Assembly (NCBI GenBank): GCA_045656985.1
Contig: JAZOSH010000025.1
Location: forward strand, 1 to 57,272
DNA: 57,272 bases
From: Eubacteriales bacterium
GTDB lineage: Bacteria; Bacillota; Clostridia; Oscillospirales; CAG-272
Reading direction: 5' to 3'
Shown here: in pieces, positions 4,952-24,725 of the stretch
Numbering within the stretch: position 1 is the stretch's first letter
Layout: each line of letters starts with the position of its first letter
Made by a program: the position numbers and the translations under genes
Notes under the pieces: model-generated
The model's input: the letters and a program-made list of their open reading frames with translations, nothing else
Databases searched by the model: none
Told to the model about the DNA's origin: nothing

Positions 4952-5730
4952 GAATTGTAACATTATACTCAGGGTCGGGCGGAAACGCGACTTACATAGA
5001 GGCGGCGGGGGTAAAGCTACTCATCGACGCGGGCAAATGTGCGCGTGCGCTTTGTACCTCGCTGACAAAAATAGGCGTCTCGATCGACGAAATAGACGCC
5101 ATATTTATAACACACGAGCACGGCGACCACATAGCCGCGCTTGAGGTGCTTTCAAAGAAGCACAAGCTGCCGATACACATTACAGAAAAGAGTGCCGAGA
5201 GATTTTACGGCGAGCGTTATTCTGCGCTTTTAGAGTGTATCGTGCCCCACTCGCCCGTGTTTTCTGTAGAAATCGGAGGTGTTTGTGTCCACTCCTTCCC
5301 CACTCCGCACGACAGCCGAATGAGTGTTGGCTATCGTATCTGCTTTGAGGAGAACGGAGAGCACGCGCTCGGTCTTGCCACCGATATAGGCTATGTGACC
5401 GATGCAATTAGAGAAGGTCTTTCGGGGTGTGAAGCGGTTGTGCTTGAGTCAAATCATGACATTGATATGCTTAAGAGCGGCCCATATCCATATGACCTTA
5501 AGCAAAGAATACTTTCGCGCAGAGGGCATCTTTCAAATGCTGAAAGTGCGCTTTTTGCCGCAGAGCTTGCTGCCACGGGAACAAAGTCCTTCATTCTGGC
5601 GCACTTGAGTGCCGAGAACAATGAGCCTGCTTTGGCTCTTGACGAATTCCTCTCTGCGACCTCTGATCTGTCTGTTCGCGTTGCGATAGCGCACCCCGAC
5701 GAGCCTACTGAAATGATTTTTGGGAGATAA
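4948..5730 (+). CDS. MBL-fold metallo-hydrolase (YycJ/WalJ-like)
   Basis: LYSGSGGN, THEHGDH, TPHDS, ATDIG, LESNHD, GHLSN, LAHLS; ATGA overlap with the upstream gene. Confidence 0.9.
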   Translation: MRIVTLYSGSGGNATYIEAAGVKLLIDAGKCARALCTSLTKIGVSIDEIDAIFITHEHGDHIAALEVLSKKHKLPIHITEKSAERFYGERYSALLECIVPHSPVFSVEIGGVCVHSFPTPHDSRMSVGYRICFEENGEHALGLATDIGYVTDAIREGLSGCEAVVLESNHDIDMLKSGPYPYDLKQRILSRRGHLSNAESALFAAELAATGTKSFILAHLSAENNEPALALDEFLSATSDLSVRVAIAHPDEPTEMIFGR

Positions 5731-14888: not shown

Positions 14889-15036
14889 TTTTCAAGCCCT
14901 CGGAAGCGGCGTATTCTCGGTTTTTTACCGACGCCTCCTCCGCGTCCTTTCTTTTTTCATTCGGTGTCCTCGGGAAAGATTTTTATACATTGTTGAAAAG
15001 TACAATCGCTTCCCTTTTTCAATAATCACTGCAAAA

Positions 15037-15101
15037 TATTATGGATATTTTTTCCTTGTATATCAAAGTTTTTCACAGGGTTTTCCATAGGTTATGGAAA
15101 A
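15037..15101 (-). promoter_or_regulatory. Putative gyrA promoter with flanking DnaA-box-like motifs
   Basis: TTGATA-17-CATAAT on the minus strand; inverted pair of TTTTCCATA at 15081-15089 (+) and 15093-15101 (-). Confidence 0.55.
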
Positions 15102-18639: not shown

Positions 18640-19794
18640 TTACTCCTTCATTCTGACAGGAAGAAGCATAAAGATCTCTTCCTTGCCGTCTTCGCAGTCA
18701 GCAGGCTGAATATTCATGCTTGTAAGGGGAGAAGACATAGAAAGTCTTACTCTCTCTGCGTTACATGCTCTTACAGAATCAATAAGGAATCTATTATTGA
18801 AGGCGATAAGAAGATCGTCACCCTCATGGTCGATTGCCACCTCATCATAGATGCTTCCTGCAGAGGAATTAGCAGAGATCTTGAGAAGCTCACCGCTTAC
18901 ATCAAGCTTTACATGCGCACGAACGCTGCCTGCAATTCTCTCCTCTGTTACAAGCGCCGCTTTTTCAAGCGCCCATATAAACTCATTTTTATTGAGCTCA
19001 ATATTTATTCTGTGATTTGTAACGATTATTCTGTTATAATCTATATAGTCACCCTCAATAAGACGCGAGAAGAAGGTAAGCTCGCCAATAAGGAAAACTA
19101 TATGCTTTCTTGTAATGTATATCTGTGTAAGGCTGTCCTCATCGTCATCAAGCAGACGGATAAGCTCATTTACAGTTTTTACAGGTATGATAAATGAAAA
19201 ATTGAGATGCTTATCGTTATTTGTGTTTCTGTTTTCAATCTCAACCTTTCTCTTTGCCTTTGCAAGCTTGAAGCTATCACAGGATACGAGCATTATCTCA
19301 TCATCTGTTATATTTGCAAAACAACCGTTAAGGACCGCTCTCTGGTCATTGATACCCATAGAGAAAGAAACCTGTGAGAGCATCTCCTTGAGATCTTTCT
19401 GGGGAAGCACAAAGCTTCTGTCACTTACAAGGTCGGGAATTGCGGGGAAATCCTCACCAACGAGCGCACTCATCTTATGAGAGGACTTTCCGCAAGTAAC
19501 ACAAGCAACAAGCTTATCGTCAACAGTAAGAGTTATCTCCTCACCCTGCATTACCTTGAGTGTCTGATAGAATTTCTGTGCATTGATTATGAAGGAGCCC
19601 TCTTCAATTACCTTTGCTTCAATGGTTATTCTTACACCCTTCTCAAGATCAAAGGTTGTAAGAACGCAAATATCAGGCATTTTAGCCTCAATAAGGATTC
19701 CGTCTATTGAAGAAAGAGTAGATTTTCCCGAGACCGCACACATAAGAGGTGTAGTTGCCGCGTTTACTGCAGAACGGTTGAATATGATTTTCAT
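18640..19794 (-). CDS. dnaN: DNA polymerase III beta sliding clamp
   Basis: Three-domain clamp, AFNNRFLID, C-terminal LLPVRMK; adjacent to dnaA. Confidence 0.96.
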   Translation of the reverse strand: MKIIFNRSAVNAATTPLMCAVSGKSTLSSIDGILIEAKMPDICVLTTFDLEKGVRITIEAKVIEEGSFIINAQKFYQTLKVMQGEEITLTVDDKLVACVTCGKSSHKMSALVGEDFPAIPDLVSDRSFVLPQKDLKEMLSQVSFSMGINDQRAVLNGCFANITDDEIMLVSCDSFKLAKAKRKVEIENRNTNNDKHLNFSFIIPVKTVNELIRLLDDDEDSLTQIYITRKHIVFLIGELTFFSRLIEGDYIDYNRIIVTNHRINIELNKNEFIWALEKAALVTEERIAGSVRAHVKLDVSGELLKISANSSAGSIYDEVAIDHEGDDLLIAFNNRFLIDSVRACNAERVRLSMSSPLTSMNIQPADCEDGKEEIFMLLPVRMKE

Positions 19795-19830
19795 AATAAT
19801 CTCCTTCTTATCTGAGCCTTTCGCGCCCAA

Positions 19831-20271
19831 ATAATAATAATAATATAAATAATTAATTATAGTAGTTTTAATAGTAGTCCCTATGGAAACTGTTGAAAAG
19901 TCCCGAAGGGCTTGTGCTGTCTTGCTTTTCCCATCTTTTCAGCTATTGAAAAATGACACAGAATTAACTTGATGATCTATGGAAAACTTTTGATCAAATA
20001 AAAGCATCAGATGAGAAAAACGGCAAAAACAAAACAAGAAAGAAAAAAAATTAAATTTACCACTTGCCTGTGGATAAAAAAAGCAAAATTTTTGTGGAAA
20101 AGGCGCGAAAAAGAGAATAAAAATGAGTTTTCCATAGAAATGTATAATATACATTCCATAGCTCTTTTCCTTATTTTACCGAAAAAAAATATACTCTTAT
20201 TGAAAAATTATTTAGTTTTCAATAATATTTTCCATAACTTGAAAACACTTTAAAAAGATATTGAAAAGCTA
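19831..20271. other. Chromosomal replication origin oriC (dnaA-dnaN intergenic)
   Basis: In the dnaA-to-dnaN direction: tandem boxes TTTTCAACA-GTTTCCATA, a GC spacer GGG, DnaA-trios CTACTATTAAAACTACTA (19860-19877), then an AT-rich tract, which is the B. subtilis-type basal unwinding layout. At least 11 DnaA-box-like 9-mers, including a perfect TTATCCACA at 20069-20077. Confidence 0.9.
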
Positions 20272-21633
20272 TTACTGCCCCGAAATATCGCGGATAAGCT
20301 CCTTGATCTCAACATTGAAAACAGGGTCTGTGAGCTTTTTTAGTATCTTCTGATAAGAAGTTATCATAGTTGAAGAATCCTTGTCAAAGAGCTTTGCAAT
20401 ATTGGGATAAGACATTTCTGTTATCTCTCTTATCAGGTAGATCGCAATGTGTCTTGCCTCTGCAATATCCTTATTTCGCTTCTGACCGAGAATATCCTCT
20501 TTCTTGATGTTGTATTTCTTATAAACCGCAGCGTAGATCTTTTCTACCGTAACGCTTATAGGCTCAGCACCGCCGAGAAGCTCGGATATACAGCCCTCTG
20601 CAAGCTCCATTGATATCTTCTTACCCGAGAGGAAGGAAAGCGCCGAAAGCTTCTTTATAGCACCTTCTATCTGTCTTATATTTGAGCGAAGATTTTCTGC
20701 CAAAAAGTTAAGTACATCATCAGGGATATTAAGAGAAACCTGCTCTGCCTTTTTCTTGATTATCGCAACGCGAAGCTCAAGATCAGGCGGCTGAATATCT
20801 GCAATAATTCCCCACTCAAAGCGGGTGTGAAGTCTCTCAACAAGCTTTTCTATATCCTTTGGCGGACGGTCTGACGAAATGATTATCTGCTTCGAATCGT
20901 CATAAAGAGCATTGAAGGTATGGAAAAATTCTTCCTGTGTTGCCTCCTTGCCCGATATAAACTGAATATCGTCAATAAGAAGAATATCGCAGTTTCTGTA
21001 TTTTTCTCTGAAAAACGGCATTGAATTGTTTGAGATGCTGCTAATAAGCTCGTTTGTAAAATCCTCACTCTTTATGTATGTTACCTTAAGATCAGGCTTT
21101 TTCTTTTTTATCTCGTTTACAACGGCGTACATAAGGTGAGTCTTACCGATACCGCTTGGACCGTAGATGAAAAGAGGATTATAATCCTTTGCATCCATCG
21201 TTGCGATAGCGGTGCACGCTGCGTGAGCAAAGCGGTTTGAGTTGCCAACTATAAAATTATCAAAGGTGTATTCAAAGTTGTAATTCTGCGGGACAACTAC
21301 CGCAGGCTTTTCTTCCTCGTCAGCTACCTCACCGATCGTTCTCTTTATGCTCTCGGTATATTCTCTCTGCTCCTCACTTACGATATAAACAAGCTTGACC
21401 TTTGTTTCAAAGCCAAAGAATTCAAAAAACTTACCCTCAAGCATAGGGATAAATTTTTCGGTTATGACCTTGAATTTTGTTATAGCATCGGTTGAAAAAG
21501 TGATGCAATCGTCCTCGTAGGAAACGATCTTGAGCTCACCAAACCAAAGATCAACAACAGTGCTTGACATATTTTCTTTGAGAGATTCTTTTATCTCTCC
21601 CCATATATTTTCAATTTCTTTGAGGTATGACAT
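20272..21633 (-). CDS. dnaA: Chromosomal replication initiator DnaA
   Basis: FDNFIVGNSN, NPLFIYGPSGIGKTHL, LLIDDIQF, RFEWG, NIRQIEGA; domain IV signature is divergent. Confidence 0.98.
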   Translation of the reverse strand: MSYLKEIENIWGEIKESLKENMSSTVVDLWFGELKIVSYEDDCITFSTDAITKFKVITEKFIPMLEGKFFEFFGFETKVKLVYIVSEEQREYTESIKRTIGEVADEEEKPAVVVPQNYNFEYTFDNFIVGNSNRFAHAACTAIATMDAKDYNPLFIYGPSGIGKTHLMYAVVNEIKKKKPDLKVTYIKSEDFTNELISSISNNSMPFFREKYRNCDILLIDDIQFISGKEATQEEFFHTFNALYDDSKQIIISSDRPPKDIEKLVERLHTRFEWGIIADIQPPDLELRVAIIKKKAEQVSLNIPDDVLNFLAENLRSNIRQIEGAIKKLSALSFLSGKKISMELAEGCISELLGGAEPISVTVEKIYAAVYKKYNIKKEDILGQKRNKDIAEARHIAIYLIREITEMSYPNIAKLFDKDSSTMITSYQKILKKLTDPVFNVEIKELIRDISGQ

Positions 21634-21907: not shown

Positions 21908-21984
21908 CTGCCCGTGGCACAGCTGGATAGCGCGCAAGACTCCGACTCTTGAGGTCGCAGGTTCAAATCCTGTCGGGCAGGCCA
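21908..21984 (+). tRNA. tRNA-Arg (anticodon CCG)
   Basis: Cloverleaf with acceptor CTGCCCG/CGGGCAG, anticodon loop CT-CCG-AC, T-loop TTCAAAT, encoded CCA, A20 and G73; one A-C mismatch in the D-stem. Confidence 0.92.
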
Positions 21985-22024: not shown

Positions 22025-22286
22025 GTCTTACCTCATTGATGCAGAACCTCGCGAACACTTGTGACTTAAATTTTTTATATCACAAAACTCCTCTGACTGT
22101 GACATTCCCCTGCAAAAAATGATGATGGTAAAAGGAAAAATATTCATAAAAAATGAATATTTTATCAAAGCTTGACGAAATCAGTCGGATTTATCTCTCA
22201 TAAAACGGCAATTTTTTTATTTCCTGCAAGGTAAAATGAAAATGAAAAAAGCCCTTATTTTCTGGGCTCTTGGGAGGAATAAAAAA

Positions 22287-24725
22287 ATGGATGCAAACAA
22301 AAATATTTTGAGTGAAGAGCTTGAAAAAGAGCTTGAAAAAAAGGATATTTCGCTTGAAAATGAAGTGGAAATGAAAAAAACAGAGATTATTCGTTCGATA
22401 GCGCGACGAGCCGGCGAAGGGTTTTTCTACATAATAATTTCCTTCTTGCTCGGTACTGCCGAAATATTCTTTGGCGCAACACCGTTCGGTGTTGCTTTGC
22501 TGTCTGCATCGAGTCGCGGAGTTGCATATATATTCATAGGATTATGCATCGCAGCAATCGCAAGCGGAGAGAGCATAGCTGTGCTTATTGCCACATATAC
22601 CGTAATAGTTCTCATTCGTGTAATGACGCGGATAGTTATAGACAATGTTCCGCTTAAGCATAAAAAAGAGGATATAAAGGCAACACTTGGTGAGCTTTTC
22701 CCTTTGCTTTTTTCGGAAAATATCTGCTTGCGAATGGCGACCTCGTGTATAGGTGCTTTCATTATCGGACTGTACACCCTTATTGGTGGCGGATTTCTTT
22801 ATTATGACCTTTGGGGCGCAATTCTTGGTATGATAATCGCGCCTGCAGCAGTGCTTCTTTATTTCGGTATTCTTGGAGGCGAGCGAGTTTCGGAGCATGT
22901 GCGCTTCATCTCATTTTGTGCTCTGCTGGCAAGTGTTATCTTCGCTGCGCGCGAAATGAGCTTATTCGGCCTTTCACCTGCTCTCTGCGGAGCAATGGCA
23001 TACACGCTTTATTTCTGCCGTAAAAGAGGATTCATAGAGTCACTTATAGTAGGAGCTGTGGCAGGACTTGCCTATTCCCCTGTTTTAGCACCGCTTTTCG
23101 TGCTTTCGGCACTTTCTGTATTTCTTCTGAAGCGCGTCTCCTTCTTCTTTGCCTGCCTTTCGGCAGCAGTGATCGGTATCTCCTGGTCGCTCTTTGCGGT
23201 CGGTATCTCGGCGCTTACAAGTGCATTGCCGTCTATTCTTATTACCTGCCTTCTCTTCTCGGTAATAGATAAGCTCTACCTCTCAAATGAGGGCGAGAGG
23301 CTTTCAACAAGGAAAAGTGTGGCGGTATCCGCGCCTGTCTGCCGTGCGCTTGACGAGGGGGCACTTGATGCGGTGATACTTAACGATACAGAGCAAAAAA
23401 TAAAGGTGATGTGCGAGACATTTTCCTCGCTGTCTACACTTTTTTACAGTATCAGCGAGCGGATGCGCCGCCCTGCGTCACAGGATATGAAAGAGATATG
23501 TGACAGTGCCTTTGATGCTTTTTGTTGTACATGTGAGAACCGCGCCTCTTGCTGGGAGGTAGAATATGCTCATTCGCTTGCAGCCCTTGGTGCGCTTTCG
23601 TCAGCCCTTACGCAGAACGGACATGTGACGGCAGACGATATGTCAAAAAGAATGCGTGAGAGGTGTCATTCAATACCCGACATGCTGGAGCAGATAAACA
23701 GAAATGCTATGCTTCATATGCAGCAGCTTATGATAGGAGACAAGACCGAAATTTTTGCGCTTGACTATGAGGCGGTATCAGAGCTTCTTGCGGGTGCTAT
23801 GGTTGACCAACGCGATGAATATGGCGTTCTTCCCGAGCTGACGCGCGAGGTATGCAAACGCTTGAGTTCTATGTCTATAGGCATTGACGGAGCGCTTGTA
23901 TTTGGTGATATGAGAAAAAAGGCAGTTCTTCTGCGTGCCACCAAGCCCTCTGCGATATACGCGAATATTGACCTTATCCGCGCCGAGCTTGAGGAGCTTT
24001 GCGGAACGCGCCTTGAATATGTTGAGAGAAAATATGAAGAAGGGCGCGCCGAAGCACTCTTTGTAACAGCAAAAAGATATACTGTAGAGTATGTTAAAAG
24101 AAGCCTCAAGGCAGAGGGCGAAGAGGGCTTCTGCGGAGATACTATAAATATTTTTGAGAACGGACAGGACAGATTTTATTCCTTTATCAGTGACGGTATG
24201 GGCTCGGGACGAGAGGCGGCGCTGACCTCGGGAATCTGCTCGGTATTTCTCTCAAGAATACTAAATACAACGAGCAAATGCGAAGTCTCGCTGAATATGC
24301 TTAACGGCTTTCTCCGCAACAAAGGAGGCGGAAGCATGCACGAGTGCTCTGCAACGGTAGACCTTATGGAGCTTGACCTTATAACGGGCTCGGCAGAATT
24401 TTATAAGGGTGGTGCCGCGCCAAGCTATGTGTACCGCGACACAAATCTCTATAAGCTTCGCTCAAACAGTGTACCTCTTGGAATAATCAAGGAGCTTGAT
24501 ACCCGAAAGATTGCCTTTGAGCTTGCCGACGGAGATGTGGTTGTGATGGTAAGTGACGGCGTGACGCAGTCAAGAGACGAGTGCCCTTGGCTCTTTGACC
24601 TTCTGCGTGAAAATGTTGGCAAGGAAAGCCTTGCCTCTATTTCAGACGCAATCGTCAAGCGGGCGAAATACGAGGGCGCCGACGATGATATTTCGGTAGT
24701 TGTTATGAGGATATTAAAAAGGTAG
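22287..24725 (+). CDS. spoIIE: Stage II sporulation protein E (PP2C-type phosphatase, membrane N-terminus)
   Basis: About 10 TM N-terminus, Cys-containing central region, FCGD, ISDGMGSG, SATVD, MVSDGV, DDISV. Confidence 0.88.
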   Translation: MDANKNILSEELEKELEKKDISLENEVEMKKTEIIRSIARRAGEGFFYIIISFLLGTAEIFFGATPFGVALLSASSRGVAYIFIGLCIAAIASGESIAVLIATYTVIVLIRVMTRIVIDNVPLKHKKEDIKATLGELFPLLFSENICLRMATSCIGAFIIGLYTLIGGGFLYYDLWGAILGMIIAPAAVLLYFGILGGERVSEHVRFISFCALLASVIFAAREMSLFGLSPALCGAMAYTLYFCRKRGFIESLIVGAVAGLAYSPVLAPLFVLSALSVFLLKRVSFFFACLSAAVIGISWSLFAVGISALTSALPSILITCLLFSVIDKLYLSNEGERLSTRKSVAVSAPVCRALDEGALDAVILNDTEQKIKVMCETFSSLSTLFYSISERMRRPASQDMKEICDSAFDAFCCTCENRASCWEVEYAHSLAALGALSSALTQNGHVTADDMSKRMRERCHSIPDMLEQINRNAMLHMQQLMIGDKTEIFALDYEAVSELLAGAMVDQRDEYGVLPELTREVCKRLSSMSIGIDGALVFGDMRKKAVLLRATKPSAIYANIDLIRAELEELCGTRLEYVERKYEEGRAEALFVTAKRYTVEYVKRSLKAEGEEGFCGDTINIFENGQDRFYSFISDGMGSGREAALTSGICSVFLSRILNTTSKCEVSLNMLNGFLRNKGGGSMHECSATVDLMELDLITGSAEFYKGGAAPSYVYRDTNLYKLRSNSVPLGIIKELDTRKIAFELADGDVVVMVSDGVTQSRDECPWLFDLLRENVGKESLASISDAIVKRAKYEGADDDISVVVMRILKR

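Follow-up and report, generated by a model that had tools for sequence, protein, structure and literature searches.

We examined the replication initiator DnaA and its origin (oriC) in the genome of an uncultured gut Clostridia species (Eubacteriales; G000; 1.8 Mb in 103 contigs), both of which lie on a single 57-kb contig (C25) that is the whole stretch of DNA analyzed here (57,272 nucleotides; hereafter, the window). We found that the first base-reading histidine of the DnaA recognition helix (His434 in Escherichia coli) is replaced by serine in this lineage, and that most DnaA boxes of the origin carry T at position 8 where C is standard, such that they end in ATA rather than in ACA. The altered boxes are orthologous to ACA boxes of a sister species; the association between a non-His residue and ATA boxes recurs in other lineages and is absent from relatives that retain His. 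Our preferred explanation, which we consider probable, is that the Ser-for-His434 replacement loosened the reading of position 8, after which sites would have moved from TTTTCMACA to TTTTCMATA. We infer from these sequence comparisons that Ser420, the G000 residue in the His434 column, causes the box change, and that the affinity of the protein for ATA boxes is no lower than for ACA boxes. The comparisons cover the dnaA loci of 28 congeneric genomes, with 22 more taken from other families within the order, and window coordinates are used throughout for features of oriC, dnaA, and gyrB-gyrA.

DnaA and the boxes of its origin

The dnaA gene (20272..21633, minus strand; start ATG at 21631-21633) encodes 453 amino acids and is the sole DnaA gene detected in the genome. 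Its product is a member of the TIGR00362 DnaA equivalog family (472.6 bits against a cut-off of 343.9, over residues 12-450) and matches both Bac_DnaA (PF00308; 229.7 bits) and Bac_DnaA_C (PF08299; 79.2 bits), with the latter giving a single match in all 103 contigs. The AAA+ motifs can be read in the translation, as GPSGIGKTHL (Walker A), LLIDDIQF (Walker B), SSDRPP, RLHTRFEWG, and NIRQIEGA, and the protein aligns to Bacillus subtilis DnaA (8BTG) without interruption. Domain IV, the helix-turn-helix that binds DNA (20344..20547, minus strand), covers positions 1-69 of the 69 in PF08299; its AlphaFold2 model has a mean pLDDT of 95.3 and superimposes in Foldseek on the DNA-bound domains of E. 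coli (1J1V_A; TM 0.82) and Mycobacterium tuberculosis (3PVP_A; TM 0.83) with an rmsd of 1.4.

The recognition helix starts K-D-S-S-T-M-I-T-S (20356..20382, minus strand, placed by the 8BTG alignment; context ...LFDKDSSTMITSYQ). An initial annotation of this DNA had aligned the helix to other DnaA proteins with a gap and had claimed that both of its conserved His residues were lost. The gapped alignment was correct: HMMER pairs DKDSSTMITSY of G000 with GRDHTTVIHAH of B. subtilis (8BTG), such that R is replaced by K, H by S, T by S and the second H by T, while D and the other T are kept. The claim about the His residues holds in part. The first, replaced by Ser420 (codon TCT at 20374-20376, minus strand), tracks the boxes, and in an alignment of 30 sequences from the genus Ser occupies the His434 column only in G000; the second, H439, is variable genus-wide and its loss is not specific to G000. 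The modeled helix is predicted to begin at Ser420, in agreement with the helix 434-451 described for E. coli, which reads TnCACA (PMC5742627). Six residues make base-specific contacts in E. coli (R399, P423, D433, H434, T435, and H439; PMC2533591), and published accounts describe all six, H434 included, as conserved in Firmicutes (PMC2533591, PMC7561715). G000 keeps the equivalents of R399, P423, and D433 but has Ser for H434, Ser for T435, and Thr for H439, and so lacks the full set; this is a departure from the canonical residues, not from the DnaA family. Five positions of the helix differ between G000 and its sister G025; identity is only 50% over the helix segment, compared to 81% over all of domain IV.

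The dnaA-dnaN spacer (19795..20271; 477 bp, GC 0.28) holds 12 DnaA-type boxes, DnaA-trios and an AT-rich tract. All of the eight ATA and three ACA boxes that the initial annotation had placed there are present: the ATA boxes are GTTTCCATA at 19882-19890 (minus strand), TTTTCAATA at 19944(-), 20198(-), 20216(+), and 20259(-), and TTTTCCATA at 19978(-), 20128(+), and 20228(+), and the ACA boxes are TTTTCAACA at 19891-19899, a perfect standard box TTATCCACA at 20069, and TTTTCCACA at 20093 (all minus strand). Thus, the tally is eight NTTTCMATA and three TTWTCMACA boxes, plus one degenerate ATA-type box, CATTCCATA, at 20152-20160(+).

This arrangement follows the B. subtilis-type basal unwinding system (PMC6669920, PMC8287927), with the same order of abutting boxes, 4-bp GC spacer, TAG-type trios, AT-rich tract, and dnaN. 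The trios, TAG TAG TTT TAA TAG TAG (19860-19877), are followed by the GC spacer TCCC (together 19860..19881, plus strand), directly past which the plus strand reads TATGGAAAC; on the dnaA strand the order is TTTTCAACA, GTTTCCATA, GGGA, then CTA CTA TTA AAA CTA CTA. On the other side, the trios adjoin an AT-rich tract, AATAATAATAATAATATAAATAATTAATTA (19830..19859), just upstream of the dnaN ribosome-binding site, which by analogy with B. subtilis incC is likely to be the unwinding element. The published rule for such systems asks for a box or pair of boxes 0-16 bp from three or more NAN trios, plus a short spacer rich in GC (PMC8287927), and the G000 origin has the box pair, the short GC spacer, and at least three trios. 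As previously claimed, the box adjoining the trios is an ATA variant: GTTTCCATA abuts TTTTCAACA in a tandem pair. It has three mismatches to the standard TTATCCACA and the distal TTTTCAACA has two, both within the limits for a pair. We therefore read the dnaA-dnaN spacer, from its layout, as the chromosomal origin with the usual Bacillus-type organization.

The ATA boxes are strongly concentrated in this spacer. We counted seven occurrences of TTTTCMATA in the 477 bp, compared to a mean of 0.095 (maximum 3) in 5000 dinucleotide-preserving shuffles of the spacer, none of which reached seven. Among 265 AT-rich 477-bp windows of the genome (GC <= 0.33), only those overlapping the oriC spacer contained more than two copies; the motif is not equally frequent in other AT-rich DNA of this genome, where the maximum was two. 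In a genome-wide ranking of box clusters, the oriC spacer came first and the gyrB-gyrA spacer second. We rejected AT composition as the cause of the ATA boxes, since G000 and the ACA-bearing G025 have spacers of equal GC (0.28) and the shuffles yield only 0.095 motifs.

Box conversions at three unlinked loci

G025 retains His, has a DnaA 79% identical to that of G000, and is its sister on the DnaA tree with 100/100 support. When the two origins were aligned, their boxes corresponded one to one; at least five are ACA in G025 and ATA in G000, including the trio-proximal one, and three stay ACA. The G025 pair orthologous to the trio-proximal tandem is ATTTCAACA and TTTTCCACA.

The same change is found upstream of gyrA. 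The gyrB-gyrA spacer of G000 contains a cluster of five boxes (14991..15101), TTTTCAACA at 14991(-), TTTTCAATA at 15016(+), ATATCCATA at 15040(-), and an inverted pair of TTTTCCATA at 15081(+) and 15093(-), four of which are of the ATA type. All three of the boxes that can be aligned with G025 are ACA in G025 and ATA in G000, and the spacers of His-type relatives hold 24 ACA boxes (two to four per relative) and no ATA box. The presence of boxes at this site in His-type relatives suggests a conserved DnaA control or titration upstream of gyrA.

A third cluster lies outside the window, on contig C19 (19314-19397; locus L276), downstream of a holA-like gene and between convergent genes. Its boxes in G000 are TTTTCCATA, TTTTCCACA, GTTTCCATA, and TTTTCCATA, of which TTTTCCACA, GTTTCCATA, and TTTTCCATA form a tight array in one orientation with the fourth about 60 bp away, an arrangement that resembles the DnaA-box clusters ('DBC') of B. 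subtilis. In a three-way alignment that is well conserved besides the box changes, all four boxes are ACA in both G025 and G029, and three of the four have undergone C to T in G000. Across these three unlinked loci, 11 or more of the 16 orthologous boxes have undergone the same C-to-T change in G000, with ACA as the ancestral state.

Mis-assembly or a chimeric metagenome bin might have created the ATA boxes or the Ser codon, a concern raised by the fact that the exact G000 DnaA is a singleton in a large protein collection. However, the His-to-Ser replacement takes two base changes (CAY to TCT), more than 15 separate C-to-T differences all fall at the same box position on two contigs (C25 and C19), which excludes random error, and dnaA, oriC, and the gyrA boxes are on one 57-kb contig with normal synteny. 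We consider an artefact of this kind extremely improbable.

A further set of box-like repeats was noted outside the window, on contig C23 (~5420-5625), where an inverted pair, TTTTCCA(C/T/G)A and, 3-7 bases on, TGTGGGAAA, is repeated four times in a 1.5-kb gene-free stretch beside a tRNA-like sequence. These repeats could be a further cluster of DnaA boxes, or an integrated element could have its origin there.

Box position 8 and the helix residue across lineages

Within the genus, the His434 column is mostly His, with Tyr in one clade of ten genomes (helix RDYATIH). We relaxed the box positions singly in the dnaA-dnaN spacers and found that position 8 is the only one that differs between the His, Tyr, and G000 groups. 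The counts at this position were C 97, T 6, A 17, and G 8 in 16 His-type genomes, C 28 and T 43 in the ten Tyr-clade genomes, and C 3 and T 8 (73% ATA) in the G000 origin; both non-His groups differed from the His group (Fisher p = 8e-7 for G000 and 1e-15 for the Tyr clade). Unbiased 8-mers of the spacers gave the same picture, with TGTGGAAA and TGTTGAAA dominant in His genomes, TATGGAAA in Tyr genomes, and TATTGAAA and TATGGAAA in G000. Nearly all boxes are ACA in 21 His-type relatives, and in a broader sample, 72 His-type DnaA loci from many phyla contain 203 ACA and 13 ATA boxes. Moreover, the trio-proximal pair lacks ATA in all of roughly 17 His-type genomes of the genus, but has an ATA box in G000, in one species of a second Ser lineage (RDSST), and in seven of nine Tyr-clade genomes. 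The Tyr clade (loci L007-L010, L012-L014, L017, L019, and L026) also received loci L084 and L085, which were among the matches listed from a genome-contig scan. At the level of the order, we noted two R-H-Y variants, neither of them informative: L042, with a GC of 0.60, lacks a neighboring dnaN, and box enrichment was not seen at L083.

We found further non-His variants in a search of 5.8 billion proteins, and a tree of 126 DnaAs requires five separate losses of His. On the DnaA tree that pairs G000 with G025, the Tyr clade is monophyletic (100/99) and placed elsewhere than G000. The ACA/ATA counts for each loss can be compared with those of His-bearing sisters: 3/8 in G000 (KDSST) with 9/0 in G025 and 4/0 in P0006; 4/3 and 5/4 in two species with the helix RDSSTIISS (P0069 and P0105) with 6/1 in P0117 and 8/0 in P0118; 28/43 summed over the ten Tyr-clade genomes with 4/0 in L021; 3/2 in P0058 (RDYST) with 3/1 in P0102; and 6/0 in P0042/P0043 (RDYST) with 6/1 in L004. 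The RDSST lineage is the cleanest natural experiment of the set, since the His-to-Ser replacement is the sole difference between its helix and the RDHSTIISS of its sisters. The prediction that loss of His is accompanied by T at position 8 is followed by both Ser lineages and by the large Tyr clade; P0058 is neutral and P0042/P0043 is a counter-example. Thus, protein and boxes co-segregate on the phylogeny in several independent lineages, with sister taxa in the ancestral state and one Tyr lineage as the exception. These results support the proposal in the initial annotation that initiator and origin evolved together, because the His-type relatives that might have shared the ATA enrichment have ACA boxes and the orthologous C-to-T changes occur at three loci.

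We also noted that the Tyr clade gains a His four residues after the His434-to-Tyr replacement (RDYATIH compared to RDHATII), and the new His may represent a contact that has shifted position. In the two small Tyr lineages that lack it (RDYSTIIAS), ATA boxes are few or absent. Separately, the DnaA branch of G000 is 0.30 changes per site in length, compared to 0.13 for G025, a hint that the initiator has evolved faster since the two split.

These comparisons bear on the possibility that specificity did not change at all, such that the ATA boxes are ordinary low-affinity regulatory sites, filled for example by cooperative ATP-DnaA spreading from a few strong ACA anchor boxes, and the His-to-Ser replacement is unrelated or merely tolerated. 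Strong ACA boxes do stand beside the ATA ones, such as TTATCCACA at 20069, E. coli origins mix high- and low-affinity sites (PMC5742627), and there is a Tyr-variant lineage with ACA boxes only. However, low-affinity sites of this sort do not readily explain why the same letter is altered at three unlinked loci, reaching beyond the origin, why the essential trio-proximal pair is hit only in non-His lineages, why ATA boxes are almost missing from the 21 relatives and 72 broader loci with His, or why the association repeats across independent lineages. We regard unchanged specificity as unlikely.

Residue 434 and the reading of position 8

To assign the box change to a residue, we considered three of the other G000 helix residues and rejected them as determinants. 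Lys432 also occurs in KDH genomes with ACA boxes only, Ser435 in RDHST genomes with ACA boxes only, and Thr439 in a helix RDHSTVLTS (L195) with five ACA and no ATA boxes. Loss of the second His (H439) is not linked to the boxes either, as its column holds A, S, or T in the genus as a whole and Y or H in the wider order; positions 435 and 438-439 are likewise reported to vary between classes (PMC5043019). Since Lys432, Ser435, and Thr439 are all found in ACA-only genomes, Ser at position 434 is left as the probable determinant, with Met437 as a possible contributor. Literature evidence supports a direct contact at the position-8 base pair: besides H434 being among the base-specific contact residues and at the start of the helix that reads TnCACA (PMC5742627), DnaA shields bottom-strand G2, the partner of C8, from dimethyl sulfate (PMC5043019).

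From these observations we propose that the replacement of His434 by Ser would have removed or altered a contact that demands C:G at box position 8. Both C and T would then be tolerated at this position, and the sites of the genome would be free to drift from TTTTCMACA to TTTTCMATA, including those in the origin, among them the box that loads DnaA onto the trios, those upstream of gyrA, and those downstream of holA. That position 8 came to be read more loosely, with drift or selection in AT-rich DNA then carrying the boxes toward T, appears to fit better than a clean switch, because ACA boxes persist in oriC and on C23 and because C and T alternate in the RDSST lineage, in which the two species differ at a shared box, one having ATA and the other ACA. 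Thus, the shift toward a TTWTCMATA box that the initial annotation had described stands insofar as ATA boxes are the majority, but the persistence of ACA boxes suggests a specificity that was loosened rather than re-targeted.

A rival reading is true re-targeting, in which the Ser-type DnaA prefers T8, the leftover ACA boxes are weak, and an orthogonal pair is emerging. It is in keeping with the share of ATA boxes in G000 (73% in oriC, 4 of 5 in the gyrA spacer, and 3 of 4 in the holA cluster), with an ATA box at the trio-proximal loading site, and with a G000 DnaA branch more than twice the length of its sister's. Set against this, the alternation of a single box between ATA and ACA by species in the second Ser lineage resembles neutral wandering between C and T, and AT-biased mutation in a spacer of 28% GC could alone yield a majority of T once C is not needed. 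Taken by itself, we consider re-targeting quite improbable; if its overlap with a loosened reading is counted as well, it becomes a minority possibility of some weight. A more general form of the argument is that residue 434 acts as a one-residue selector for position 8, such that His enforces C:G while Ser, and Tyr within RDYATIH, would permit or favor T:A; we offer this only tentatively and think it rather doubtful that it holds in so simple a form.

Several observations weigh against a loosened reading caused by Ser420. Three of 11 oriC boxes remain ACA, including the perfect TTATCCACA, and the C23 cluster is mostly of the ACA type, such that ACA is evidently still used. P0042/P0043 (RDYSTIIAS), with six ACA and no ATA boxes, indicates that the residue change alone does not suffice in all backgrounds, and together with P0058, at 3/2 compared to 3/1 in its sister, that ATA boxes need not follow the loss of His. 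There are at most five independent lineages, of which only three or four go in the predicted direction. Met437 of G000 may contribute as well, and the pairing of His434 with the position-8 guanine at the level of atoms is putative. Finally, because the exact G000 DnaA occurs once among 5.8 billion proteins, the variant is represented on one metagenome-assembled contig only.

Genomic setting and comparison with known systems

The gene order in the window, from the open reading frame listing, is dnaA, dnaN, recF, a DUF370 gene, gyrB, and gyrA, and the dnaA, dnaN, recF, gyrB, gyrA synteny of G000 is kept in its relatives. The dnaN gene, encoding the beta clamp (18640..19794, minus strand), was identified by the open reading frame listing and by tblastn matches to dnaN of relatives, and lies downstream of the origin. 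Upstream of dnaA, rpmH and rnpA are absent, a tRNA-Arg(CCG) gene is found at 21908-21984, between dnaA and a divergent spoIIE gene (22236-24725), and there is no box cluster (0 ACA and 1 ATA in 500 bp). Thus, the origin is not visibly bipartite. The stated sources of relatives are goat colon (L089) and, for more distant ones, other animal and human guts; a scan of metagenome contigs did not find near relatives, with a best match of 44% identity.

Two observations concern the assemblies of relatives. Many of them (G001, G005, G013, G015, G017, G018, G021, G027, and G032) end within a few hundred bases of dnaA, and origins of this genus seem hard to assemble, perhaps as a result of low coverage or repeats in the AT-rich spacer. 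Also, the bin G004 contains two full-length dnaA genes (on C33 and C47; loci L011 and L033), each with its own dnaN and origin. The two proteins are ~63% and ~60% identical to G000 DnaA and are placed in different branches of the genus tree; G004 is probably a mixed bin rather than a genome with two origins.

Relative to the canonical DnaA and box, represented by E. coli domain IV on TTATCCACA (1J1V) and by B. subtilis DnaA (8BTG), the G000 system has the same family, fold, and 9-mer frame, with positions 1-7 and 9 of the box unchanged, and differs in the three helix residues described above and in the prevalence of T8 over C8. There are precedents for taxon-specific boxes and helix-5 residues in Thermotoga maritima (ACCTACCAC; PMC10316083), in Epsilonproteobacteria (a TTCAC core with T5; PMC5043019), and in Mycobacterium tuberculosis (TTGTCCACA; 3PVP). 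Those are deep, phylum-level differences that involve many protein changes, whereas the G000 case concerns one box position and essentially one residue, separates sister species of one genus, and recurs. Because the change is small, lies between sister species, and recurs, cause and effect can be isolated here, and the case has unusually good natural controls. A literature search turned up no account of an ATA-type DnaA box, nor any that connects TTTTCCATA or TTTTCAATA with DnaA.

Recognition of the DnaA box is generally regarded as almost invariant among bacteria, and programs that locate origins take TTATCCACA as the motif unless one specific to the species has been recorded. Such programs will under-score origins of the kind described here, in which the loading box itself is three mismatches away from the standard motif. 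On the sequence evidence, DnaA and its boxes in G000 look like a natural case of an essential DNA-binding protein and its sites changing together, by a change that is recent, small (one residue and one base pair), repeated, and seen at the oriC, gyrB-gyrA, and holA clusters. This makes directly testable the old question of how a cell survives while such a protein and its numerous sites are altered in concert, and the pattern suggests a route through loosened specificity. If residue 434 does act as a selector, the genus would hold natural initiator and origin pairs that are growing mutually incompatible, and these would provide the first simple entry in a DnaA recognition code, as well as a ready-made orthogonal origin system.

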